Shown in pieces: positions 62,636-64,000 of a DNA stretch of 64,000 bases. The notes under the pieces are model-generated. The model ran no database searches and was not told where the DNA came from. It was given only the letters and a program-made list of their open reading frames with translations. Position 1 is the stretch's first letter; each line of letters starts with the position of its first letter. This stretch comes from Escherichia phage kvi, in the sequence record MN850615.1, one strand, 5' to 3'. Both the position numbers and the translations under genes were made by a program.

Positions 62636-63106
62636 TTACAGTTTGGTCGTCCACTCCAGGTCTAGATCTTCGACATACTCATGAGATCGGACAATCTCTA
62701 AATCGAACTCTAGGTCAGTGCCAAATTTACGCGCACCAACATCATAAGAAAGCGTGATATGCGGTACATATTCAGGATAATCCCACGTCGCACCTAAAGC
62801 AGTGCCGATATCGTGTCTGAATTGCATGTAGTCGCTTTCAAATGCCAGCACAAGCGCATTAGTACCGGATTGAGTTTCAAACACTTTAAGATGGCATAGA
62901 GAGCCTAAAAACTTTTCACCCTCTTCTGGTATAAACGGAACATAGACACGAGAATATAAGATAGTGCTATGCAGTTTATCACGAGGAACGGCATTAGGCA
63001 GATCGTAGAACTCCTGCAATTTTTCAATGCGGTCTAGTGTATCCTCAGTGAATTTAACAGCCGCATATGTACCTTTAACGGATTCTCTAAACGGGGTCAT
63101 AATCAA
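62636..63106 (-). CDS. 2H-family phosphoesterase (LigT-like), Acb1/gene 57B-like by fold and synteny
   Basis: 156 aa; two H-x-T/S-x motifs (…KLHSTILYS… and …VPHITLSYD…); lies next to 57A-like and gene 1 as T4 57B does. Confidence 0.6.
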   Translation of the reverse strand: MIMTPFRESVKGTYAAVKFTEDTLDRIEKLQEFYDLPNAVPRDKLHSTILYSRVYVPFIPEEGEKFLGSLCHLKVFETQSGTNALVLAFESDYMQFRHDIGTALGATWDYPEYVPHITLSYDVGARKFGTDLEFDLEIVRSHEYVEDLDLEWTTKL

Positions 63107-63369
63107 GCCTCCGTGATCAGTTCTACTTCCTCTTCTGCTTCTTCTGCGGCTTCGTCTTTAGGGAGAAGTGCTTTCACTTCTTCGACAATAGCATCAAGGG
63201 AAACAGTGCCGTTTTCGTCTGGCTGAATACCCAGAATGCGTACCAGTTCCATCAATACACGCTCACGATCTTTCAGTTGGCCTTCTAAGAATGCGGCCTT
63301 TTCTTGAGTGTCAAACAGACGTACTTTCAGGACATTAATCATTTGTTCATGCTGATTGGACATATTCAC
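63103..63369 (-). CDS. 57A-like small coiled-coil protein (by synteny)
   Basis: 88 aa acidic coiled-coil ORF between the 57B-like gene and gene 1. Confidence 0.45.
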   Translation of the reverse strand: MNMSNQHEQMINVLKVRLFDTQEKAAFLEGQLKDRERVLMELVRILGIQPDENGTVSLDAIVEEVKALLPKDEAAEEAEEEVELITEA

Positions 63370-63395: not shown

Positions 63396-64000
63396 TTAAA
63401 TGTTCGCGAGAATCTCGCTTTCAAATTCTTCTAATGTGCCATTATTTATGATAACTGTTTCACCGTCAATAGGCAAAATTCCTTTTTCGGTGGAGTGAGT
63501 CGATACAATACCAGTATCACGCTGAATATGCAACACCTTAGCACCCATAGCACGCATAAGAGCAATTTCAATAGGCTGACGCACATCAACCACTACAAAA
63601 TACCCTTCTTCATTTTTTCGCTTCATAAACTCATTCACGAAGAGATTACACCAATAAAGCGGATTGATCAAGTTAACCATTATATCAGTACCGAGAGTGG
63701 TTAACATGAGACGAATAGACCAGACGTTATTATGTTTTTCGCCAATCTCATTAACGACCTTGTAAATCTCAGCCAGACGATCACAAGTAAAGGAACTACC
63801 GCCATACTTCGAATCTAGCATAAGCAGACACTGAATAAACCACTTATGCGCGGTATAGGTATCAATACCTAGATCGGCTTCTCTGTCACGCCCTAACCCG
63901 TCAAAGTCAAGATAAGTCAGACCTAAGTCTGGTTGACATTCGCACAATATTTCTTTGATCGGTGCTGCCAGTTGATAACTATGTCCATCAATGATTAACG
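63396..64000 (-). CDS. 1: deoxynucleoside monophosphate kinase, C-terminal part (start lies beyond the window end)
   Basis: frame open to position 64000; …YQLAAPIKEIL…, …WSIRLMLTTLGTDIMVNLINPLYW…, …YFVVVDVRQPIEIALMRAMGAKVLHIQR… match T4 gp1 as recalled. Confidence 0.8.
   Translation of the reverse strand, partial: LIIDGHSYQLAAPIKEILCECQPDLGLTYLDFDGLGRDREADLGIDTYTAHKWFIQCLLMLDSKYGGSSFTCDRLAEIYKVVNEIGEKHNNVWSIRLMLTTLGTDIMVNLINPLYWCNLFVNEFMKRKNEEGYFVVVDVRQPIEIALMRAMGAKVLHIQRDTGIVSTHSTEKGILPIDGETVIINNGTLEEFESEILANI

Follow-up and report, generated by a model that had tools for sequence, protein, structure and literature searches.

T4 Acb1, the product of gene 57B, is the founding anti-CBASS nuclease, described by Hobbs et al. 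in 2022 (PMC9117128); the initial annotation of the locus studied here was correct in stating that the T4 gene at the 57B position is an experimentally defined Acb1. The family, as represented by the T4 and Erwinia phage FBB1 enzymes, cleaves adenosine-containing cyclic di- and trinucleotides without a metal. Its substrates include 3'3'-cGAMP, cUA, cAAA and cAAG but not cGG or cA4, and nine further homologues all cleaved both 3'3'-cGAMP and cAAA (PMC9117128). In T4, Acb1 activity appears ~15 min into infection, and deleting acb1 causes a >300-fold plating defect on CBASS hosts (PMC9117128). T4 Acb1 also degrades 2'3'-c-di-AMP, and so triggers Panoptes (bioRxiv 10.1101/2025.08.21.671373). The catalytic tetrad of the T4 enzyme is H44/T46/H113/T115; Y12, W74, F107 and W147 stack against the bases, E141 contacts the adenine N6, and residues 145-152 form a C-terminal lid (PMC9117128). 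The RefSeq record of T4 57B is still labelled 'RNA ligase', so that annotation lags behind the 2022 characterisation.

We analysed a window of 64,000 nucleotides from Escherichia phage kvi (MN850615.1), near one end of which lies a gene at the position that 57B occupies in T4. We take this gene, with a probability of roughly 0.93, to be the orthologue of T4 57B/acb1 in Krischvirus (RB49-type phages), encoding a small metal-independent 2H phosphodiesterase. The open reading frame ending at 62636 that had been picked out in the initial annotation is real; it lies on the minus strand and its stop codon is TAA (62638-62636). Its proposed length of 156 aa is probably not right. That version starts at an in-frame TTG at 63106, upstream of an ATG at 63100, and the Shine-Dalgarno sequence GGAGG (63112-63108, minus strand, within the 3' end of gene 57A) is 7 nt from the ATG versus 1 nt from the TTG. 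RB49 and its relatives are annotated with the ATG start, giving 154 aa. Because of this spacing and these annotations, we place acb1 at 62636-63100 (minus strand; 154 aa plus stop), and the sequence makes the ATG the most likely true start. The open reading frame list, identity to the RB49 protein, and Pfam, PDB and T4 matches all apply to this coding sequence.

The protein was also expected to carry the two H-x-T/S-x motifs of 2H phosphoesterases, and a motif scan of the 154-aa sequence found exactly two H-x-[TS]-x motifs. In ATG numbering, these are H44-S-T46-I (codons 44-47, 62960..62971, minus strand) and H114-I-T116-L (codons 114-117, 62750..62761, minus strand). The two-motif pattern alone is weak evidence and not significant, since at least two H-x-[TS] motifs also turn up in 13.8% of shuffled versions of the protein; the significance rests on profile and structure matches.

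These matches are strong. The Pfam Acb1 profile PF23474, whose curated cutoff is 27 bits, matched residues 9-152 with 174.4 bits (E 1.5e-51), and the match covered profile positions 1-143 of 144. All 64 homologues retrieved from a collection of 5.8 billion proteins carry PF23474. Alignment with T4 Acb1 (57B, NP_049750.1), which the initial annotation had put forward as a check, gave 47% identity over the full length (E 3e-47), the T4 protein being 152 aa long compared with 154 aa here. Among solved structures, the sequence search found only that of Erwinia phage FBB1 Acb1 (E 1.8e-43), available as the apo form (PDB 7T26) and as the 3'3'-cGAMP complex (7T27). Searches of NCBIfam and PADLOC with the Acb1 protein gave no matches, as expected because neither library covers phage anti-defence proteins.

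An AlphaFold2 model of Krischvirus Acb1, built with 62 of the 64 homologue sequences as input, had a pLDDT of 91.6 and a pTM of 0.84. Its best Foldseek match was 7T26, with a TM score of 0.86 by query and 0.97 by target, an rmsd of 0.9 Å and 52% identity, followed by 7T27; FBB1 Acb1 is thus the closest solved structure, although it comes from a phage of another host genus. After Acb1 ranked a Burkholderia phage phosphodiesterase (TM ~0.7) and then E. coli LigT (TM ~0.5). The former is the 2H phosphodiesterase of phage BCSR5 (9Q2G/9Q2Y), which has the 2H fold, a TM score of 0.62-0.72 and 16-18% identity, and is apparently the '2H PDE-9' of a recent preprint (bioRxiv 10.1101/2025.08.21.671373). 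If so, it reportedly cleaves 3'3'-cGAMP, but has its lid at the N-terminus rather than the C-terminus and spares 2'3'-c-di-AMP (same preprint). The profile, the FBB1 structure, the T4 alignment, the fold, the functional residues and the synteny described below all back the original proposal that the gene in the 57B position encodes a 2H phosphoesterase of the Acb1 type.

The residues that define Acb1 function are conserved. None of the 62 aligned family members departs from H44, T46, H114 or T116; H44 and T46 correspond to H44 and T46 of the T4 and FBB1 enzymes, and H114 and T116 to T4 H113 and T115. The residues aligned with the ligand contacts of T4 Acb1 are Y12, F74, Y108, W150 and E144. 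Tyrosine occupies alignment column 12 in 61 of the 62 sequences, glutamate column 144 in 56 and tryptophan column 150 in 47, while every one has F or W at position 74 and F, Y, W or H at position 108. The locus therefore resembles T4 in its HxT/HxT tetrad, Y12, adenine-reading glutamate and lid tryptophan, as well as in its place after gene 1 and 57A. It differs in having F74 and Y108 where T4 has W74 and F107, and in the extra residues F132-D133. F74 and the tyrosine at 108 are variants shared with the crystallised FBB1 enzyme. The C-terminal segment E144-L154 (62639..62671, minus strand) contains the equivalents of T4 E141 (E144) and T4 W147 (W150) and a conserved LxW motif, L148-E-W150. Residues 151-154 have low pLDDT in the model, which would fit a flexible lid. 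The two-residue insertion F132-D133, before the last strand, is the sole length difference from T4 and FBB1 Acb1, and extra residues at this position are also present in many other Acb1 family members.

We infer the substrate range, product, expression timing and in vivo anti-CBASS effect of Krischvirus Acb1 by analogy with the characterised enzymes. CBASS cyclic di- and trinucleotides with at least one adenosine (3'3'-cGAMP, cUA, cAAA, cAAG) would be bound in a U-shaped pocket, with their bases stacked by Y12, F74, Y108 and W150 and the adenine N6 read by E144, and the C-terminal lid would shut over the ligand. The H44/T46/H114/T116 tetrad would then promote metal-free attack of the adenosine 2'-OH on the 3'-5' bond, and the reaction would proceed through a 2',3'-cyclic phosphate intermediate to a linear 3'-phosphate product. 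With the messenger destroyed, CBASS effectors would stay inactive and the infected cell would be spared abortive death.

The substrate range could nevertheless differ from that of T4 Acb1, because identity is just 47% to the T4 enzyme and ~52% to that of FBB1. Such an Acb1-family enzyme with a shifted range might spare 2'3'-c-di-AMP and so fail to trigger Panoptes, or might favour cyclic trinucleotides, for example cA3, including type III CRISPR signals. Besides the 53% of residues that differ from T4 Acb1, this reading can draw on F74 and Y108, which match FBB1 but differ from the W and F of T4, and on the F132-D133 insertion relative to both enzymes. There is also precedent for tuning of specificity by the enzyme core in related phage 2H phosphodiesterases: PDE-9 avoids 2'3'-c-di-AMP and with it Panoptes, and in related 2H phosphodiesterases specificity and products vary even inside one structural group (bioRxiv 10.1101/2025.08.21.671373). 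If true, RB49-type phages would have a pattern of immune evasion and liability unlike that of T-even phages. However, we regard a shifted range as unlikely. The ligand-contact residues are all either conserved or identical to the variant in FBB1 Acb1, an enzyme that binds 3'3'-cGAMP in the crystal; nine of nine extra homologues examined by Hobbs et al. cleaved 3'3'-cGAMP and cAAA (PMC9117128); and the extra residues at 132-133 are common to many other family members.

It is much less likely still that the protein is a housekeeping-type 2H enzyme, i.e., a LigT-like 2',3'-cyclic phosphodiesterase or 2'-5' RNA ligase acting on RNA ends, for instance in tRNA repair. E. coli LigT and the 2'-5' RNA ligases (PF02834, PF13563) belong to the same 2H superfamily and have two HxT/S motifs, PHROG 755 and RefSeq give the family the label 'RNA ligase', and LigT structures are among the Foldseek matches. 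LigT is, however, larger and lacks the C-terminal lid of Acb1, and its Foldseek matches had TM scores of 0.46-0.58, 10-13% identity and rmsd values of 4.5-7.7 Å, as against 0.97 and 52% for Acb1. The corresponding Pfam matches, 2_5_RNA_ligase2 (E 0.0011) and LigT_PEase (E 0.057), were both below threshold, at 19.4 bits versus a cutoff of 27 and 14.1 versus 23.3, respectively; the best homology is thus to Acb1, whereas best homology to LigT or RNA ligases only was the outcome that the initial annotation had named as telling against its proposal. The 'RNA ligase' label is a legacy superfamily name, one that T4 57B bears even though it is an experimentally defined Acb1. Given the sub-cutoff Pfam scores and a structural likeness at the superfamily level only, we rejected the LigT/RNA-ligase identity. 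We likewise rejected, as the most improbable reading of all, an inactive remnant of a gene that is decaying without function in the phage lineage. In one Krischvirus record, that of phage Cognac (MZ504877.1, 221-684), acb1 does lack one nucleotide of a T5 run near codon 63, a deletion that splits it into open reading frames of 64 aa and 82 aa. Either this isolate has naturally lost Acb1 or the deletion is a sequencing error in the homopolymer, and differences in homopolymer length are typical of such errors. In the phage kvi gene, by contrast, the frame is intact and the catalytic residues are all present, and divergence from RB49 is exclusively synonymous, as set out below.

Over a 2-kb region around acb1, identity is 96-99% to 58 phage records, every one of them from Krischvirus (RB49, Phi1, JSE and relatives), with phage FL20 the best nucleotide match (99.2%). 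Each of the 58 contains acb1, with 96-99.8% DNA identity, and in 55 of the 58 the encoded protein is ≥99% identical. The gene is under purifying selection: the protein is 100% identical to RB49 gp57B (AAQ15381.1; UniProt Q7Y455), and all seven nucleotide differences from the RB49 gene are synonymous. The UniRef cluster containing the exact sequence is named 'Anti-CBASS protein Acb1 n=16 Tax=Krischvirus'. The Krischvirus gene is therefore an already known Acb1 orthologue, and its assignment is routine. In phage vB_EcoM_G2494 the protein carries a single substitution, D129N. This RB49-type phage is included in the lysate screen of Hobbs et al., as given in Supplementary Table 1 of that paper (PMC9117128). 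Our literature search found no paper pairing RB49 or Krischvirus with Acb1 or CBASS in its main text. None of the 58 Krischvirus records calls the gene Acb1; the names used are 'hypothetical protein', 'gp57B' and 'RNA ligase'.

Hence the importance of the result lies mainly in correct annotation, in that the 'hypothetical protein' and 'RNA ligase' labels of most GenBank and RefSeq records should become Acb1. RB49-type coliphages are common members of phage-therapy collections, and since they carry an Acb1 counter-defence gene, they should withstand many CBASS systems. If the analogy with T4 Acb1 holds, decoy-nucleotide systems such as Panoptes may in turn act against them.

The upstream genomic setting of acb1 also matches that in T4. 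The neighbours named in the initial annotation, a 57A-like gene and gene 1, are both upstream on the same strand. Gene 57A, for a tail fibre chaperone, lies at 63103..63363 (minus strand; Pfam GP57, 27.7 bits; phrog_1002, E 1.8e-26; RB49 annotation). The 3' part of gene 1, for a dNMP kinase, lies at 63396..64000 (minus strand; Pfam DNMK, E 1.2e-53) and runs past the window end; in RB49, gene 1 is annotated as 657 nt. The minus-strand order gene 1, 57A, 57B is the order in both T4 and RB49. The stop codon of 57A (TGA, 63105-63103) ends 2 nt upstream of the acb1 ATG, which leaves no room for a promoter directly before acb1, so that acb1 is probably transcribed together with 57A and coupled to it in translation. 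A promoter scan found a single σ70-like match upstream on the minus strand, a 10/12 site inside gene 1 (63469..63441). A search for the late-promoter sequence TATAAATA found none near acb1, the nearest being at 60799-60806. The transcript would run from gene 1 through 57A into 57B and end at a stem-loop just after 57B.

That stem-loop is part of a PeSL. PeSLs ("promoter-early stem-loop" elements) consist of a stem-loop, an AT-rich tract, a σ70-like promoter and a Shine-Dalgarno sequence, and are located between the stop codon of one gene and the start codon of the next (PMC2839356). The only PeSL near acb1 spans about 62534-62635 on the minus strand, downstream of 57B. A terminator scan identified its stem-loop as an intrinsic terminator (ACCCCGAAA/TTTCGGGGT, followed by T7GT5) at 62609..62629 (minus strand). 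The stem has 9 pairs and starts 6 nt past the acb1 stop codon, with a fold energy of -12.8 kcal/mol (z = -3.25), and phage G2494 is among several related records that annotate the stem-loop as a terminator. A T-rich tract separates it from a σ70-like promoter with an 11/12 match (TTGACA/17 nt/CATAAT, 62563..62591, minus strand; boxes at 62591-62586 and 62568-62563) that points into the next gene. The Shine-Dalgarno sequence AGGAGA (62536-62531) and then a run of ATG follow. The initial annotation had set the gene between a PeSL promoter and a strong terminator. The terminator stands, but the PeSL is downstream and supplies no upstream promoter: judging from the arrangement of the sequence, the strong terminator is the PeSL stem-loop itself, and the PeSL promoter would drive the next gene rather than 57B. 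With the sole PeSL downstream and no TATAAATA nearby, an upstream PeSL or late promoter for 57B was rejected. Related PeSL copies (repeat family D1) lie at 59585-59645 and 60547-60607. PeSL cassettes are typical of the hyperplastic regions of RB49-type phages, and the one after the acb1 stop codon marks where the conserved 1-57A-57B block gives way to a variable region of small open reading frames.

The first of these, downstream of the PeSL promoter, encodes 124 aa (62145-62519, minus strand) and is a homologue of RB49ORF125c and a member of phrog_15253, of unknown function. It is unrelated to the anti-restriction gene ipI, whose slot downstream of 57B in T4 it fills from behind the PeSL cassette. 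Its Pfam Gp30.7 match was below threshold (E 0.004), and searches of PDB and PADLOC gave no meaningful matches. Further downstream, ~0.7 kb from acb1, is a dmd homologue (61707-61910, minus strand; Pfam Dmd, E 7.8e-15). Dmd is an antitoxin with which phages counter the toxins RnlA and LsoA. With dmd this close to acb1, the stretch looks like a small anti-defence neighbourhood, and the position of the 124-aa open reading frame beside both genes makes it a candidate anti-defence gene. Beyond lie five small, strongly hydrophobic open reading frames of 72, 64, 79, 36 and 80 aa with short overlaps (60798-61762, minus strand); four were checked against Pfam without a match, and all five look like predicted membrane peptides. 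A 61-aa open reading frame (60336-60521, minus strand) has a full-length match to the conserved Pfam family DUF7421, whose function is unknown (E 3.8e-40).
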